This document shows positions 6,166 through 20,077 of a stretch of 20,703 nucleotides of DNA, piece by piece; position 1 is the stretch's first letter; each line of letters starts with the position of its first letter. A model generated the notes under the pieces. That model was not told the DNA's origin. It did no database searches and worked only from the letters and a program-made list of their open reading frames with translations. This DNA is from an uncultured archaeon (GTDB taxonomy: Archaea; Asgardarchaeota; Heimdallarchaeia; Heimdallarchaeales; Kariarchaeaceae): positions 87,428 to 108,130 of the forward strand of contig CAZYCQ010000004.1 in assembly GCA_964645535.1 (NCBI GenBank), in the 5' to 3' direction. The translations under genes and the position numbers were made by a program.

Positions 6166-9100
6166 ATGAGAGTGTTCTTATCAACCATTTTTGTATTCCT
6201 GCTAGTGTTTCATTCTAGTCAACCCTTTGTACAAGAGGTTATTTCCCCCTCAAACGATACCCAAAGCGACAGTGAAAAAATCATGTGTTCTGATAGTAGC
6301 AACTTTCTGATGCCCTCAGAACTTAAATGATTTTAAGATACTTAGCCTTGTTTTCTTCGAAATTGAAAAGGACATACTGAAAACCGACCTTCCTCCTCCA
6401 ATGAAAATTTACCATAATTTGCGGGCTGCTGTTTATGAAGTATCTTCTGGCAATTATGATTTATTCCAAAAACATTTTGGAAATAAGTTATTCCCAATTC
6501 CAGAATTTTACCAAAAAATTAGATGGCCCATAACAGAACCCTCGGAAAAGAACATTGTATCATTGGGGGAAATTCCAAAAGGAAGTATGCATGGACTCGT
6601 TCCACTTTGGGAAAAAGGTTATAACGGAACAGGTGTAGTAATCGGCATTATTGATACTGGTGTCGAATTTTCAAATCCCTCACTTTCTCATGCCTATTAT
6701 GCCTATGAATTCTTTGGCTATCCAAATCTTCCAGGTGACAAAATTCATGGAACTGCAGTTGCGAGTGTCATGGTTTCGAATGGAAGTGGCTATCCTGATC
6801 CAGATTTTGCCAAAGGGGTTGCCTATGGTGCAAAACTTGCAGTTGCTGAAATGGCAATGATCGTTATATTTATGGTGACTTTATTGGCGCTTTCGATTGG
6901 TTGCTTGGAATGCCTAAGGTTAAAATAATTAATTTTAGCATGGGCACACGATTGAGTTGGTTTGGAATGATAGCCCAAAGAATTGAACAAGCGAATAAAA
7001 TCTTGGTTGCCAGTGCAGGAAATGGTGGTACAGGTGGATCTGATTTGGATGACCCTTTCACAGTAACTTCTCCTGCAAGTAATCCTCATGCAATTGGAGT
7101 TGGTGGAACAACACCTGACAAAACTCTTTATCAAGCCACTTCAGAGGGACCTGGAGATTTCGGAATCATGAAGCCAGATCTAGTTGCTCAAGCTACAAAT
7201 GTTCTTGTTGCCAGCAAAGAAGGAGACTACTTTTATTGGGAAGGCACCTCTTTTGCAGCTCCAACAGTTGCCGGATCCATTGCCACTCTGATTTCTGCAT
7301 TGGAAGCAAATAACGTGAACTGGACTGTGGCAACCCTTAAGGCAGCCTTAATGAGAACTGCAACTGACTTGGACTATCCAAATTATCAACAGGGAACTGG
7401 TTTGATTAATGTTTCAAGGGCTTTTGATTATTTGATGTCTTTACCAAAGGATCAAGAGGGAATTCCAATTGTCTTTGAAGTAACTCCAAAGGAAGGGTAT
7501 CCTCCGGAACTCAATTCTATACCTATCGGAAGGGATCTTCATTTCCCGGTGACAGTCATTACATCTCATCTGGAAAATGTCTCTTTTGAATTGCAAGGGA
7601 ATTTTACAAGTTTTGCTTCTATCGACGTTCCAATGGTACAGAATTTTTCAAGTCATGAAATAACAATTCACATTACCCCCAATGGATCACAATCGGTTGG
7701 GTATTATTCTGGGGAACTAAGAGTTAGTTTCAATAACGAAACCATGCATGTTCCCATATCTTTCAATGTCCTTTCTGAACCGGCAAAAAAAATTTATGTC
7801 GATGGCTATCATACAGTTCTTGACGACGTCGGAGGATTTGGACTTGCAAGTGACCTGACTGGGGCATTGTCATCAATTCTACTGCAGGATGGATATTGGT
7901 TAGAAATCAAAAATGAACCATTCTCACTGGAAACTCTCTCTCAGTTCGATGCTTTACTCATGATTTCCCCCTTTAAGGAAAATGGATACACGGGTTTTGT
8001 ACCCAATCCAATTACGGATACTGAATTGAAAGTTCTTTTTGAATACTTGGAGCAAGGAGGTTCGCTGTTCTTGACTGGTGATAGTGTAGAAAATGGATCA
8101 CATATTTCACAGCTTGAAAAAATTTCAAAACCATTTGGCGTAACCTTCACTTCCACAGTTCCAGATGATCAACTCATATTGAAGAGAATTGCAAGATTTG
8201 CCTTTAATGAAACTTCAATCAATAGAAATGCAGATGCAATCCAAGTATTCTATGGTTCCCTGAATGTTGAATCTCCTGGCAGACCTTTAGCCATTGATGA
8301 AAATGGTTATGTTTCCCTAGCTTATGGTGTTACATCAAATTATGCAGGAAGGGTAGTATTTTCTGCCACAACACACTTTTTCCAAATAGAATATTTGGAT
8401 AGGGATGTTAAATTTCCCCACTCCACTGAATTTATCCAAGATCTTTTCGACTTCCTCACAAGCAAGGAAAGAATCTCTGTTGTGAATGAAACAATAACCG
8501 AAAATCAAGTCAACTTGGTTGTTAGATCAATGCAGAACGGAACATTTTCTGAAGTTGATCCAAAAATCAAATTAAGGGTTGGAAATGAAGAGGCATTCAA
8601 TTATACCATTGAATACTTGGGTCAAGGGTTTTCTGAAATCCGACTGTTGTTTCTGGAAGATGGATTATTTGAACCGGTAATGTCTTTTGGCAACGATTAC
8701 GTTGCGAGACAGTATATTATCGATACCGCTCCACCTCATCTGCGGAGCGATGATCGCAATCCTTCGAAAATATCTTCAGATCGAGATATTGCTGTTTTGA
8801 ATTTCTTTGCAGAAGACGAATCCGGGATTGATTGGAATAGCTTGGACGTAACTTTGGATGGAAAAAGTGATGGTTTCAACGTCTTCTCCTCCTCAAGCAG
8901 AATTACTGTTTCCTTCGCTCCGCGTTCATTATTACCACTTGAAACCCACACGATCAAAATTGAACTTTCAGATCTTTTTGGAAATGAAGGAAATCTTTCT
9001 TATTCTTTCTTCGTTTCAGGTAGGATTGAAGAAACAAGTTCAAGTATTGAAGAAACAACCCCAAATGATACCGAAACCATGGAATCGCAGATCTCAAGTT

Positions 9101-9192
9101 CGGTACGTGACGTTCCATTTGCGGAAACATCTATGATATTCATGTTGGCAATACTTATGGGTAAAAGACGAAAAGTTCTATTTAGGTCATAA
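6166..9192 (+). pseudogene. S8 subtilisin-like serine protease, secreted/membrane-anchored, MBTPS1 (site-1 protease)-like architecture; split by two frameshifts (sequencing error or recent inactivation)
   Basis: A signal peptide MRVFLSTIFVFLLVF starts at ATG 6166. A +1 shift at about 6311-6328 leads into the ORF containing IGIIDTG (D, 6653) and IHGTAVAS (H, 6746). A -1 shift at about 6850-6855 leads into the ORF containing SAGNGG, KPDLVA and EGTSFAAP (S, 7249). Downstream are an Ig-like region, a GATase-like/DUF4350-like region (KKIYVDGYH...YLEQGGSLFLTGD), another Ig-like region, an S/T/E-rich linker and a hydrophobic-basic tail. The reconstructed length is about 1008 aa. Confidence 0.85.
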
Positions 9193-12453: not shown

Positions 12454-12942
12454 TCAAATTTGATATTCCTTCTTGTTCATCACCTGACGGATGGTAAGCA
12501 TTCCTGTTTCCGTATCAAAGATGATGGTTCGTCCATAGTTTTCTCCGACATCTTCCGCAACAATTCGTATCCCCAATCCTTCAAGGATTTTCTTAACAGA
12601 ATCAATATTTCTCCTTCCGATATCTAGATTATTCGAGGCAGTATTGGTCTCAAACATCTTCGCTCCCCCTGCTATCTTCGCAATTAGGTTCTTCCGGCTT
12701 GCACCATGGGTTTCCAACATCCGGATTGCTTCCGGAATGGCTGTTGTTGCGAATTTTCCAGGATTGGCTCCCTGATCGCTATTCATTTCTGTCGGAAGAA
12801 GGACATGAGCCAAGGCAGCAATCTTGGTGTTCTTGTCATACAAAACCACGCCTACACAACTCCCAAGAGCTAGTGCCTGAAGTTTGGCGGGAGCACGGGC
12901 GATCTGAATCTCCCCGATTTTGGCAGTCAATACCTGCGACAT
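12454..12942 (-). CDS. cheD: Chemoreceptor glutamine deamidase CheD
   Basis: ALGSCVGVVLYD (catalytic C), AHVLLP (H), KIAGGAKMF, IGRRNI and DVGENYGRTI. The start is placed at ATG 12942, overlapping the cheC stop (TGATG). Confidence 0.95.
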   Translation of the reverse strand: MSQVLTAKIGEIQIARAPAKLQALALGSCVGVVLYDKNTKIAALAHVLLPTEMNSDQGANPGKFATTAIPEAIRMLETHGASRKNLIAKIAGGAKMFETNTASNNLDIGRRNIDSVKKILEGLGIRIVAEDVGENYGRTIIFDTETGMLTIRQVMNKKEYQI

Positions 12943-13604
12943 CAATACATCGCCTCCCAATTCTCTCCATACAGGGTGGTCATCAAGGCATTCATGGCCT
13001 TTCGATCCGGTAGCATGAGGATATCTCCCTTGATTTTTTCCTCGTCCGTGAAGATGTCCACCTCAACCAGAAGAAATTTGTCTCCTGTATCTCCTTCAAT
13101 TGAAACAAGCTCATCAGTTAATGCACCTACCATGTCTATGGCAAGGCTCGGTGCATGGGGGAACCATTTCGCTTCGGTAAAGCTGTTGATCGCTGAAATG
13201 GTATGAATAAGAAGGATATTGCCGGTTTCTTTGATGATGGATCTTGAAAGTTCATCTAAATCTTCAATCCGGCTTGGAATGGGTGATGCAACCAAGGTTC
13301 CAAGGAGTTGTTTGATGGATTCGAAATCGAATATGAGCAAAAGGTTCAGAACACCCTTTTCATCCTCAGACGTCTCTTGCAGTATACCTGCTACAACCTC
13401 CTCTGGTGTTTCCGCCAAGTATTCTCCCACATCTGCTATCGGGACAAACCTGACCCGCGGAATGCTCATATCAACCCGTCGGTTCAGAAGTTGCGAAAGT
13501 GCAGTTGCTGCATGACCCACACCAATATTGCTTAACTCCTGAAGGGCCTCAATCTTTGGATCATAATCTTCAAAGAGCCCATCATCGGGAATCCTTAAAC
13601 CCAT
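12942..13604 (-). CDS. cheC: CheY-P phosphatase CheC
   Basis: Two CheC E-x2-N motifs, ALQELSNIGVGHAATALSQLL...SIP and IIKETGNIL...APSLAIDM. Adjacent to cheD. Confidence 0.93.
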   Translation of the reverse strand: MGLRIPDDGLFEDYDPKIEALQELSNIGVGHAATALSQLLNRRVDMSIPRVRFVPIADVGEYLAETPEEVVAGILQETSEDEKGVLNLLLIFDFESIKQLLGTLVASPIPSRIEDLDELSRSIIKETGNILLIHTISAINSFTEAKWFPHAPSLAIDMVGALTDELVSIEGDTGDKFLLVEVDIFTDEEKIKGDILMLPDRKAMNALMTTLYGENWEAMY

Positions 13605-16984: not shown

Positions 16985-18070
16985 TTGTTGCCCGTTACTG
17001 TATTGATTGCGGATGATTCTCCTTTCATGCTCAAATTGCTGAATGACACCATCTCCACCGATCCAAATCTAAAGGTGATCGGCACTGCCAAGAGGGGGGT
17101 GGAGTGTATCACACAAGTAATTACCAAAAGACCACGGGTTGTTGTCCTTGATATCATGCTCCCTGATGAAAGCGGTCTGAACATCGTCTACCAGATTATG
17201 AGGGCAAGACCCACGGCAGTCGTTCTTTTCTCCTCTCTTACCGCTGAGAAAGTGAAGCAGGATTCCCTTGTGTTCAATTACGGAATTGTAGATTTCGTCT
17301 CAAAACCTCCAAACGAAATTGAGGATCCAATCGCCTATCTCAAGAAAACCCTGATCCCCAAAGTCCACACCCTTGCAAAACTGAATGTCCAGAAATTCAA
17401 GTATATGATATCCACCACAAATGATGAATTCCTTGGAAGGATTTCTACACAAAAGGAAAAGGAAATTCCCGTTGCTGAAACAAAGATCACTCCACGACAG
17501 GCCATTCGAAGGCTGATAGTGATTGGCGCAAGTACTGGTGGTCCAAGCGCCCTTGCTCATTTGTTTTCTCTGCTCCCTTCCAACCTCCCTCCTATTCTAG
17601 TGGTTCAGCATATGCCACCTGGTTTCATCGAATCTTTTGCAGTCAGGCTTGACAAGGCATCAAAAGTCCAAGTACAGGCTGCTGAAGAAGGCATGATATT
17701 GCAACCAGGTAATGCCTATGTTGCACAAGGTGGAAAACACATGGTGCTTGAAAAGAAGAAAAACGGTCAAGTCATGATCAAATTTGATGATGGACCTCTT
17801 GTCAATTTCGTCAAACCATCTGTGGACGTCACCATTCTTTCAGCTGCCGAGATTTTCCGGGACAACATGCTTGTTGTCATCATGACCGGAATGGGTAAGG
17901 ATGGCTTGCAAGGATCGCGTCTCGTGAAAAAATATGGTGGAAAGGTCTTGGCTCAAAGTAAGGAAGACTCAGTGATCTACGGAATGAACAAAGCAGTTGT
18001 TGACGCGGGCTTGGCCGATCGAATCATGCCAGTTGAACGACTAGCGAAAACAATCACGGAAATGATCTAG
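16985..18070 (+). CDS. cheB: Chemotaxis response regulator protein-glutamate methylesterase CheB
   Basis: An N-terminal REC domain (IADDS, LDIMLP, FVSKP) is joined to a methylesterase domain (IGASTGG, VQHMP, KPSVDV, MTGMGKDG). Confidence 0.96.
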   Translation: MLPVTVLIADDSPFMLKLLNDTISTDPNLKVIGTAKRGVECITQVITKRPRVVVLDIMLPDESGLNIVYQIMRARPTAVVLFSSLTAEKVKQDSLVFNYGIVDFVSKPPNEIEDPIAYLKKTLIPKVHTLAKLNVQKFKYMISTTNDEFLGRISTQKEKEIPVAETKITPRQAIRRLIVIGASTGGPSALAHLFSLLPSNLPPILVVQHMPPGFIESFAVRLDKASKVQVQAAEEGMILQPGNAYVAQGGKHMVLEKKKNGQVMIKFDDGPLVNFVKPSVDVTILSAAEIFRDNMLVVIMTGMGKDGLQGSRLVKKYGGKVLAQSKEDSVIYGMNKAVVDAGLADRIMPVERLAKTITEMI

Positions 18071-18429
18071 GAAGAAACCGTTTTTTCTATTGCCTTGACA
18101 ATTTCTTCATTTCTGAAAGGTTTAATGATGAATTCCCTCGCACCAGACTTGATGGCGTCCAAAACAAAAGCTTCCTGACCTAACGCCGTTACCATGACAA
18201 TTCTTGCATTTGGATCGAAGGACATAATCTGTTTGACTGCCTCAATTCCATTTTGCTTCGGCATGACAATATCTAGGGTCATACAGTCCGGTCTCTCTCT
18301 CGCCCAGATCTCAACGGCATCTACCCCGGTTTCACCCTCTGCCACGATTTCATGGCCCGCATCCGTCAATATCCTTCTCAAAACTAATCGCATAAATTTT
18401 GCATCGTCAACTATCGCTATTCGTGCCAT
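18067..18429 (-). CDS. cheY: Chemotaxis response regulator CheY
   Basis: Stand-alone REC domain with IVDDAKFMR, TLDIVMP, VTALGQ and FIIKPF. It resembles the Firmicutes/Thermotoga/archaeal CheY type. Confidence 0.88.
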   Translation of the reverse strand: MARIAIVDDAKFMRLVLRRILTDAGHEIVAEGETGVDAVEIWARERPDCMTLDIVMPKQNGIEAVKQIMSFDPNARIVMVTALGQEAFVLDAIKSGAREFIIKPFRNEEIVKAIEKTVSS

Positions 18430-18563: not shown

Positions 18564-18935
18564 TCACGGATTATCCAAGACATTATTGATCACTTGAGCC
18601 AATTGGCTGAGCCGAAATGGCTTTGTCACAAAATCCTTGGCACCTGCTCTTAAGGCTGGCTGGACAATATGTGGACTGGAAATCGATGTGACCATGACCA
18701 CTTTTGCAGAGGGGTTGAGTGTCAAAATTCTTTTGAGAACTTGGAGTCCATCCATTTTTGGCATGACCACGTCTAAGGTGACTAAATCAATCTCGTGCAT
18801 GTGCTCCGCATAGATGTTGATGGCATCTTCCCCATTGACTGCTCGATAAACCACATCATGTCCCATCTTTCTCAGTAGCTTTTCAATCACCATCAACATG
18901 AAACGGGCGTCATCCACAACCATTATCCTAGCCAC
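18564..18935 (-). CDS. cheY: Second CheY-like stand-alone response regulator
   Basis: VVDDARFM, TLDVVMPKMDG, VTS and FVTKPF, with a GTG start. Confidence 0.8.
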   Translation of the reverse strand: MARIMVVDDARFMLMVIEKLLRKMGHDVVYRAVNGEDAINIYAEHMHEIDLVTLDVVMPKMDGLQVLKRILTLNPSAKVVMVTSISSPHIVQPALRAGAKDFVTKPFRLSQLAQVINNVLDNP

Positions 18936-19068: not shown

Positions 19069-19971
19069 TTATCCGCCCATATGCTCTTGGATCTTTTTCA
19101 CCAATTCATCCTTATTGCTTCGGGTGCTGACGTTCTCAATTCCCATTTCAATGGCTATTCTGATGAGCTCTGCCTTGGTGAGGCTATGAAGATCCAAAGG
19201 ACTTTCCCCGAACTGATCTTCTTCTGCCGGTTTTTTGGCAGGAGCCTCTTTTTTGGCTTTCTTTGCCGGCTTCGTTGATGTGACCGATTTTGGTTCTTCC
19301 TTCTTGACTACCTTCATCCCTTGGTCATCCACTATTATGTCCTCATCATCTGCAAGATCATCTATTGAGAAATCTGCGCCTAACTTGTCCTTTGAACTGA
19401 TACGGTCAATTTCATCGTTTGTGACAGTAACCTCGTCTGAGGTTTCGATCTCCTTCGAGAGCACCTGTTCGCGCACCGCAGCCAATTTTTCGAGTTGGGA
19501 TACCTCATACTCAGATAGAATGACCTGAAGTGTCAAGATGATCACAATGCCCAAATCCGTCTGGACAACTCCTTCAATGAAAGGAGTGGTCTGTTCCTTT
19601 GATAGGAGAGTCAATGATTCCTGAATGTCCTTCTCATCAACAGTAATGACGGCTTCCACATAATCAACCAAGAGCCCAACCAGTGATTTTCCAACATTCA
19701 CCATGAGAACGTAGTTCCTATCATCCTCATCATAGGTTCTTTTCGGTTTCCGAGTCTCTTCAATCAACAATCTTCTCTTGAGATCGATTGTGGAAATAAT
19801 TTGACCCCTGAAGTTGATTACTCCTGCAATGTAGTCTGGGGCTTGAGGAATGGGGGTGATGGTTTCAGGAACAAATACTTCCTGAACATTATGGACGTCA
19901 AACGCAAAGTATTCGTCATTGAGAAGGAAAGTGACCAACTTCTTCTGTTTTGTCGTCTGCGCAGTGCTCAT
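19069..19971 (-). CDS. cheW: Chemotaxis coupling protein CheW with acidic/low-complexity linker and C-terminal Rho_N/HeH-like domain
   Basis: CheW motifs LVTFLLNDEYFAFDVHNVQEV, ITPIPQAPDYIAGVINFRGQIISTIDL and VGLLVDYV, then the tail LHSLTKAELIRIAIEMGI...KDELVKKI. The start was moved from 20019 to ATG 19971, which has an AGGT SD-like sequence and a TATA-like TTTTTTATTA at 19999-20008. Confidence 0.9.
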   Translation of the reverse strand: MSTAQTTKQKKLVTFLLNDEYFAFDVHNVQEVFVPETITPIPQAPDYIAGVINFRGQIISTIDLKRRLLIEETRKPKRTYDEDDRNYVLMVNVGKSLVGLLVDYVEAVITVDEKDIQESLTLLSKEQTTPFIEGVVQTDLGIVIILTLQVILSEYEVSQLEKLAAVREQVLSKEIETSDEVTVTNDEIDRISSKDKLGADFSIDDLADDEDIIVDDQGMKVVKKEEPKSVTSTKPAKKAKKEAPAKKPAEEDQFGESPLDLHSLTKAELIRIAIEMGIENVSTRSNKDELVKKIQEHMGG

Positions 19972-20077
19972 GTAATACCTAACCTGTGTTTGAATCAATA
20001 ATAAAAAAGTCATTCCCATCCATGGTGGAAAAGGAGTCGAAACTTCACGCAGAAAACAACAGTGGTCTGAACCCAGT

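Follow-up and report, generated by a model that had tools for sequence, protein, structure and literature searches.

What would a CheW protein do with a long C-terminal tail that ends in a small folded domain, and which partner would such a tail hold? This question is raised by a gene of an uncultured archaeon of the Kariarchaeaceae (Asgardarchaeota; Heimdallarchaeia; Heimdallarchaeales), located in a stretch of 20,703 nucleotides of GenBank assembly GCA_964645535.1 (contig CAZYCQ010000004.1, positions 87,428 to 108,130). We call this whole stretch the window, and coordinates given without a contig or locus name refer to it. The gene, cheW-HeH, encodes a protein, P0001, in which a CheW domain is joined through a helix and a disordered acidic arm to a domain of the helix-extension-helix (HeH) type. 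The fusion is real and is confined to one clade. As to its role, we tentatively regard the arm as a CheW-borne tether for docking a protein, with CheR as the best candidate. The parts of the gene are as follows; structural features were taken from an AlphaFold2 (AF2) model of P0001 built on 25 homologues and from its predicted local distance difference test (pLDDT) values.

19069..19971, minus strand: the cheW-HeH gene, 300 codons plus stop, encoding P0001 (open reading frame and translation)
19510..19938, minus strand: CheW domain, residues 12-154 (Pfam PF01584, 112.9 bits against a cut-off of 23.5)
19450..19503, minus strand: amphipathic helix, conserved, which immediately follows the CheW domain, residues 157-174 (helix 157-177 in the AF2 model)
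19279..19449, minus strand: acidic arm, disordered, in which two short motifs are conserved (pLDDT under 50; motif conservation)
19228..19272, minus strand: K/P/A-rich stretch of basic charge, residues 234-248; an insert at genus level that varies in length and composition
19072..19218, minus strand: HeH (Rho_N/SAP-like) tail, residues 252-300, with an invariant G-x-x-P-L-D-L lead-in, helix 266-276, an extended loop and helix 287-299
19997..20008, minus strand: A/T-rich, TATA-like box, a putative promoter read from the sequence, which lies some 25-36 nt 5' of the ATG at 19971

The open reading frame as listed runs over 19069-20019 on the minus strand, and the ATG at 20019 offers a longer alternative start. 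The true start is almost certainly the ATG at 19971, because all 24 full-length homologues (258-315 aa) begin in the alignment at the equivalent Met and because the TATA-like box sits between the two ATGs; the longer start was rejected on these grounds. The sequence strings quoted in the original prediction, which had described a CheW protein fused to a nucleic-acid-binding type of domain, were each located in this minus-strand frame where it had placed them. Its acidic stretch corresponds to residues 200-216 (nt 19324-19374), and its L-D-L...I-Q-E segment to residues 259-296 (nt 19084-19197).

The CheW part of P0001 is ordinary in its fold. The AF2 model gave a confident double beta-barrel with pLDDT of 80-89. 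When this part was compared with the PDB by Foldseek, it matched 2qdl, 2ch4 and 6s1k with E-values of 1e-10 to 1e-12 and TM-scores of 0.73-0.81 depending on the target (2qdl: E 5e-12, TM 0.78, 36% identity; 2ch4: TM 0.80). The receptor-contact motif G-x-x-N-x-R-G occupies residues 50-56 (nt 19804-19824), and its G50, N53, R55 and G56 are invariant among 25 sequences; the receptor-contact role of the Arg in this motif is established for E. coli CheW. The domain is also the top-scoring CheW domain of its own genome. With the NCBIfam CheW equivalog model NF007903 the protein scored 54.8 bits, below the cut-off of 260. Judged by these profile scores, P0001 is a CheW-family protein and not an equivalog of enterobacterial CheW. 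Pfam gave no Response_reg match in P0001, so that it is not a CheV-type fusion of CheW with a REC domain.

P0001 shares with the canonical CheW proteins of Thermoanaerobacter tengcongensis (2qdl) and Thermotoga maritima (2ch4/3ur1) the fold, the Pfam family and the invariant G-x-x-N-x-R-G motif, and its gene likewise stands among cheA, cheY, cheB, cheC and cheD genes. The canonical protein, however, ends where the domain ends, whereas P0001 continues for about 145 C-terminal residues that form the helix, the acidic arm and the HeH domain. The homologue alignment shows that the helix following the CheW domain keeps L163 without exception and R167 in nearly all sequences.

We then consider the identity of the HeH tail. 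In P0001 the Pfam Rho_N model matched residues 260-294 with 20.9 bits when the full protein was searched, with 24.2 bits for the last 71 aa and with 25.3 bits for the last 50 aa, values that place the tail at the Pfam cut-off of 24.9; the SAP model scored below Rho_N on the same tail. Among the orthologous tails, 23 of 25 matched Rho_N at E <= 0.01 (best 5.4e-9), the orthologue P0035 reached 36.3 bits, and P0025 and P0026 carry a precomputed match to PF07498. A profile built from the tail, when run against 1.84 billion sequences, retrieved dozens of small bona fide Rho_N proteins with scores up to 55 bits. A search of PDB sequences with the tail profile gave no match at E <= 10. One further protein found with the profile, P0034 (942 aa, Utp25-like, in which tail positions 2-20 were matched ten times over short stretches), was discarded as a low-complexity artefact.

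The structural comparison pointed in the same direction. The tail helices had a pLDDT of about 80 in the full-length model, and a model of the tail only had a pLDDT of 85 with helices at its positions 16-25 and 37-47. With Foldseek, the best match of the tail was the N-terminal helix bundle of Rho (1pv4/2a8v), which superposed on 37-38 residues at a root-mean-square deviation (rmsd) of 1.1-1.3 A, with roughly 30% identity and a match probability of 0.95; the E-value of about 1 reflects the very small size of the domain. VIA-align ranked the SAP domains 1zrj (Z 6.3) and 2do1 (Z 6.0) first, followed by Rho 1a62 (Z 5.9) and the LEM domain 7ndy (Z 5.1), and further matches were the SAP domain of SLX4, the LEM domain of emerin and the SAP-like domains of MANF/CDNF. 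These Z-scores of 5-6.3 fall below the caution level of 8 for this program. In a language-model atlas the tail lay near Rho_N/SAP clusters at 0.79-0.84, which is below the 0.9 level and serves as a lead only. Taken together, the models support the assignment of the tail to the Rho_N/SAP/LEM (HeH) fold class. The gap left by the fold scores is closed by the Rho_N matches of the orthologues and by the retrieval of Rho_N proteins with the tail profile, and these argue for homology of the tail to Rho_N at the family level. That is, the original prediction could have failed at this point if the tail had not resembled a Rho_N/HeH fold, and AF2, Foldseek and VIA-align all found the resemblance.

With the known members of this class (PF07498, PF02037, PF12949; 1a62, 1zrj, 2odc) the tail shares the two-helix fold and the pattern L-x2-L-x-K-x-E-L ... 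K-x-E-L-I. It differs from them in being attached to a chemotaxis scaffold protein, in being neutral to acidic, and in its clade-specific, invariant G-x-x-P lead-in. Furthermore, Rho possesses an OB fold as the partner domain that binds nucleic acid, whereas the tail of P0001 is not accompanied by such a domain.

No other part of the protein is conserved as well as the tail. In the homologue alignment the mean column identity was 64% in the tail and 50% over the whole protein, and twelve tail positions are invariant among proteins that are only 39-45% identical overall. The named homologues are labelled Heimdallarchaeota or Kariarchaeaceae. When 400 genomes of the phylum were scanned, the tail was found in 10, namely the genome of the window plus 7 of 11 in its family (f1) and 2 of 3 in a second family (f4), both belonging to the same order. 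In the third f4 genome the gene is cut by the contig end just where the tail begins, and the f1 genomes in which no tail was found either have no CheW at all or are only 68-86% complete. In all ten tailed genomes the tail occurs once, always in the reading frame with the best CheW domain. In the library of 1.84 billion proteins only seven clusters matched the tail at E < 1e-10, and those checked belonged to this CheW clade or were fragments of it. The alignment and the genome scan thus dispose of the possibility that orthologous CheW proteins lack the tail, and the search for the architecture places the fusion of CheW with Rho_N in two families of one Heimdallarchaeial order. In a tree of CheW domains, 27 of 27 tailed proteins fell on one side of a branch with support of 84/84, with the short-armed f4 proteins nested inside. 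This is consistent with a single origin of the fusion, and the support for it is not strong, since the outgroups stand on long branches.

No second copy of the tail was found in the own genome with the tail profile, and cheW-HeH is the single gene that carries it. The generic Rho_N model detected one other clear HeH protein there, in addition to weak matches, none of them related to chemotaxis. This protein (G000:C33, L006:1426-2613, minus strand) has 395 aa and belongs to no known family; in its C-terminal half, three Rho_N/HeH-like repeats stand in tandem.

Outside CheW, the tail profile matched P0036, a CheY protein of 193 aa, with an E-value of 2.8e-7 over tail positions 2-49. In P0036 a receiver domain (residues 20-131) is followed by the same lead-in and HeH domain. 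This protein is an orthologue of CheY1, the response regulator encoded next to cheW-HeH, and its gene comes directly after one for a CheW of 272 aa, within a che cluster that is complete. Only nine near-identical variants were found, all in Logan assemblies and from one narrow lineage. From the sequence comparison, the tail module appears to have been copied from CheW onto the neighbouring CheY1 in this one sublineage. Since the copy was placed on the adjacent CheY1, the tail would be a portable module for docking or localisation within the pathway.

Between the post-CheW helix and the tail, P0001 has a disordered acidic arm of roughly 100 aa, in which pLDDT was under 50 from about residue 197 to 255. 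The arm varies between 38 and 116 aa in the homologue alignment, and its disordered acidic linker between 30 and 115 aa over the clade (arms of 61-116 aa in f1 and 31-35 aa in f4); the length and composition of the linker drift freely. Two short motifs are retained in the larger family. The first is at residues 178-184 (nt 19420-19440) and includes the invariant E180; the second, D-F-S-x-D-D-L, is at residues 200-206 (nt 19354-19374) and includes the invariant D204 and D205. Such invariant short motifs within otherwise variable disorder are a pattern typical of docking sites. The charge of the arm is also constant in its sign. Residues 178-231 of P0001 have a net charge of -10, and over all 25 proteins the arm ranges from -4 to -19, while the HeH domain itself ranges from -5 to +3 and is typically -1 to -2.

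The K/P/A-rich stretch did not show such conservation. It is limited to the closest homologues (P0001-P0005 and, weakly, P0008-P0011) and is absent from P0007 and P0013-P0026; in the own genus it forms a short basic patch of +5. The idea that this PAKK stretch is a conserved DNA-binding element was rejected from the alignment, because the stretch is specific to the genus. Of the architecture first proposed, that is, CheW joined by an acidic/PAKK linker to a Rho_N/HeH domain, the fusion through a flexible linker is borne out, whereas the PAKK part proved to be a genus-level low-complexity insert that most orthologues lack.

What could an acidic arm with conserved motifs hold? A candidate emerged from CheR, the one such protein found in the own genome:

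G000:C16, L038:1033-2424, minus strand: CheR, P0102, 464 aa; its first 50 aa are basic (+10), and its C-terminus is extended by 144 aa with a net charge of +27

E. coli CheR has about 285 aa, and the CheR found here is thus about 180 aa longer. Nine orthologues from f1 were read whole, seven of them from genomes with a tailed CheW and two (G046 and G051) with a long CheR from genomes in which a tailed CheW was not detected. Eight of the nine possess a C-terminal extension of 144-162 aa with a net charge of +17 to +38. In the f4 genomes, where the arm of CheW is short, the extension of CheR is 69-73 aa long and has a net charge of +11 or +12. The CheR proteins of the tail-less genomes of families f2 and f3 have no C-terminal extension, and neither do the CheR paralogues of the second chemosensory system within f1. 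Thus, the length class of the CheR extension tracks the arm of CheW across the order. All of f1, G047 included, retains an amphipathic helix motif within the extension, and this motif aligns with a similar helix of f4. When the extension was used in a word-based search, no more than four close relatives were retrieved, because its sequence changes too quickly for such a search.

We therefore ask what these features would mean in the array. The E. coli high-abundance receptors bear a C-terminal pentapeptide tether that recruits CheR and CheB and binds the beta-subdomain of CheR. We propose, by comparison, that the CheW domain of P0001 is built into the receptor/kinase baseplate as usual and that its acidic arm would project from the baseplate into the cytoplasm. 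Together with its HeH end, the arm may then capture the basic, helix-bearing extension of CheR at the array and, in one sublineage, perhaps CheY1 as well. The captured adaptation enzyme would be concentrated at the receptors, an effect like that of the pentapeptide, with the arm carried by CheW. In both cases a flexible arm on the array would raise the local concentration of an adaptation enzyme. The E. coli tether, however, is on the receptor and ends in a peptide of five residues, whereas here the arm is on CheW and has a folded end, and the proposed ligand is the extension of CheR. The architecture, the fold class, the conservation, the clade limits, the charge pattern and the co-occurrence with the CheR extension are observed; protein binding by the arm, and CheR as the protein bound, we infer from them. 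Of the readings considered, we tentatively place this one first. For the HeH tail, too, a protein seems the more likely partner than nucleic acid. The HeH/SAP-like domains matched by its fold include ones that bind proteins, such as the LEM domain of emerin with BAF, MANF/CDNF with BiP, and SLX4 with MUS81.

Several points weigh against this proposal. The commonest known role of SAP/HeH domains is the binding of nucleic acids. The fold matches of the HeH domain, with Z of 5-6.3 and a Foldseek E of about 1, are too low for the fold alone to prove kinship. In G047 the extension of the orthologous CheR is only 67 aa long and has a net charge of +1. The co-variation of CheR with CheW comes down to some three contrasts, all between related genomes (f1 and f4 against f2/f3; long against short; paralogue against orthologue), so that shared descent could yield it. 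In addition, the basic tail of CheR could equally well bind DNA, RNA or the membrane on its own.

The general concept of a tethered array is not new. In Vibrio, ParP combines a CheW-like domain for integration into the array with a region that binds ParC, and so tethers the array (PMC5706961); in Myxococcus xanthus, the chemoreceptor FrzCD is bound to the nucleoid through a basic tail (PMC5716589). ParP resembles P0001 in that a CheW-like domain built into the array has an extra region tethering the array to another protein. The two differ in their order: the CheW-like part of ParP is C-terminal, behind the region for the ParA-like ParC, whereas in P0001 the extra part is C-terminal and is an HeH domain, so that P0001 is not of the ParP type. 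Moreover, ParP is bacterial and has no sequence relation to P0001 outside the CheW-like domain. Surveys of CheW architectures describe 111 Pfam architectures, among them repeated CheW domains, CheV, and CheW joined to che domains, to PAS or to "other domains" (bioRxiv 10.1101/2022.05.07.491035,.491037), and a fusion to Rho_N or HeH is not named in them. No relevant paper came up in a literature search that combined CheW with SAP, HeH or Rho_N. The earlier remark that no described example was known agrees with both results.

The genes around cheW-HeH are listed below.

18564..18935, minus strand: cheY1, a response regulator (Pfam Response_reg) that directly follows cheW-HeH
18067..18429, minus strand: cheY2, a second CheY, slow-evolving (72-97% identity among relatives)
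16985..18070, plus strand: cheB, with REC and methylesterase domains (domain annotation)
12454..13604, minus strand: the cheC-cheD pair of the same pathway, also found near cheW-HeH in relatives

In relatives cheA adjoins the che cluster, and in the own assembly it is located on contig C87. P0001 is the array-coupling CheW of one of the two chemosensory systems of the genome, and its partners are CheA (C87), CheY1, CheY2, CheB, CheC/CheD, the single long CheR and membrane-bound MCPs. By tblastn, a cheY1 orthologue was found immediately downstream of cheW-HeH in 9 of 9 f1 loci read; it is fast-evolving, with 51-95% identity, and the phospho-acceptor residues D8, D9, D55, T/S83 and K105 of CheY1 are conserved. 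The own genome has 14 MCP candidates, all with 1-4 predicted transmembrane segments. A short form of 319-399 aa accounts for eleven of the 14; in ten of the eleven, three or four membrane segments are predicted at the N-terminus and a large extracellular domain is lacking, and the eleventh has a single predicted segment.

Pfam models, which may miss divergent Asgard versions, gave zero CheF matches in 47 genomes of the order, and archaellin scored above the cut-off in only one of the 47 (G047). In the own genome, which is 89% complete, none of bacterial flagellin, CheF and archaellin was found, and three T2SSE-type ATPases are present. CheW occurs in 17 of the 47 genomes, most of which have a full che set. 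A recent survey reports that sets of type-IV-filament genes are scattered and partial in this phylum (PMC13705601).

Among the alternatives, the one that survives best is that one tail pairs with another, or that the tails bind a component of the cytoskeleton or the output which is specific to the lineage, so that arrays are cross-linked or coupled to output. Pairing of tails, or a shared third partner, would explain why the tail is found on both CheW and CheY1, and an output component peculiar to the lineage would accord with the failure to detect CheF and with archaellin in only one genome. The HeH-like C-terminal domain of T4 endonuclease VII, a region that Pfam calls a dimerisation domain, was also among the fold matches, although with a poor rmsd of 4.2 A. 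The analysis yielded no candidate partner, and no other gene of the own genome carries the tail; we consider this explanation unlikely.

The original prediction had inferred a tether to the nucleoid, RNA or another scaffold. On its nucleic-acid version, the HeH domain, aided by the K/P/A stretch, would bind DNA or RNA and anchor the array. Nucleic acids or chromatin proteins are the ligands of the best-known members of this fold class, the own genus does have the +5 basic stretch, and FrzCD offers a precedent for chemosensory complexes scaffolded on the nucleoid by an appended tail (PMC5716589). The charges tell against it: the arm is acidic and the HeH domain about neutral in 25 of 25 proteins, which makes it unlikely that the nucleoid or RNA is held by a conserved electrostatic attraction, and the K/P/A stretch is absent from most orthologues. 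FrzCD itself is a cytoplasmic receptor with a positively charged N-terminal tail, the opposite of the acidic arm of CheW. In addition, the receptors here are membrane proteins, all 14 MCP candidates being membrane-bound, so that there would be no cytoplasmic array in need of a nucleoid scaffold. We thus regard such a tether as improbable. The third option of the original prediction, another scaffold, still has a place, with a protein as the preferred partner.

Rather improbable, too, is the explanation that the arm and tail recruit the co-transcribed, fast-evolving CheY1, in analogy to the P2 domain of CheA or to CheV. The constant position of cheY1 after cheW-HeH in the f1 loci argues for it, as does the tail on CheY1 itself in one sublineage, which is a link of the Rosetta-stone type. 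The motif D-F-S-x-D-D-L may also be loosely similar to the acidic CheY-binding peptides of FliM and CheZ. The f4 genomes, however, keep the tail without an adjacent cheY and without the acidic motifs, and a P2 domain is already present in both CheA proteins of the own genome. A complex prediction of CheY1 with CheW residues 150-300 gave a score of 0.07 against a mark of 0.32, and we counted it neither for nor against binding.

We give little credence to a further version in which the HeH tail binds DNA or a chromatin protein, and the membrane array is held to the nucleoid by the fold that LEM/HeH/SAP proteins use at the eukaryotic inner nuclear membrane. If it were true, it would be a prokaryotic precedent for membrane-to-chromatin tethering in close archaeal relatives of eukaryotes, and it would suggest a possible non-motility output for a Che pathway without detectable CheF and archaellin. 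Lastly, that the tail is a neutral appendage without function, as the free drift in length and composition of the linker might suggest, is scarcely credible in view of its twelve invariant positions, its column identity above that of the whole protein and its retention in two families.

Several further observations concern the che genes and the window. The second chemosensory system of the genome is encoded by a compact cluster (G000:C24, L031:4040-11140) with an MCP, an ordinary CheW of 148 aa, CheY, CheA and a CheC-like gene. This cluster also encodes a 658-aa protein whose sole Pfam match is a partial CheW-like domain (residues 202-291), and in its CheA the dimerisation domain was not detected. 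In sister families, open frames of 974-1142 aa (G010:C100, G013:C281 and G014:C24) contain four to six consecutive CheW-like domains, which exceeds the CheW.II/III forms of the literature. In a related Heimdallarchaeial che locus, a gene for an Arf/Ras-like small GTPase (L025:1581-2198) lies between the cheB and cheY genes. Within the window, a subtilase (Peptidase_S8) is split over two overlapping frames on the plus strand, 6401-6928 and 6901-9192, which match profile positions 1-88 and then 110-288; a frameshift, an error of sequencing or a broken gene could each account for the split.

We return to the tether for which CheR is the preferred partner. Few components of prokaryotic chemosensory arrays are as uniform as CheW, and here the main CheW of a whole Heimdallarchaeial clade is equipped with a long tether and a folded end. 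The CheR of the same clade has an extension that is complementary in charge to the arm of CheW and of a matching length class. If the arm does bind CheR, this would be a new and independently evolved way to hold an adaptation enzyme at the array. The clade-specific tail is also one of the few handles on the question of what a full Che pathway with 14 receptors controls in these archaea.

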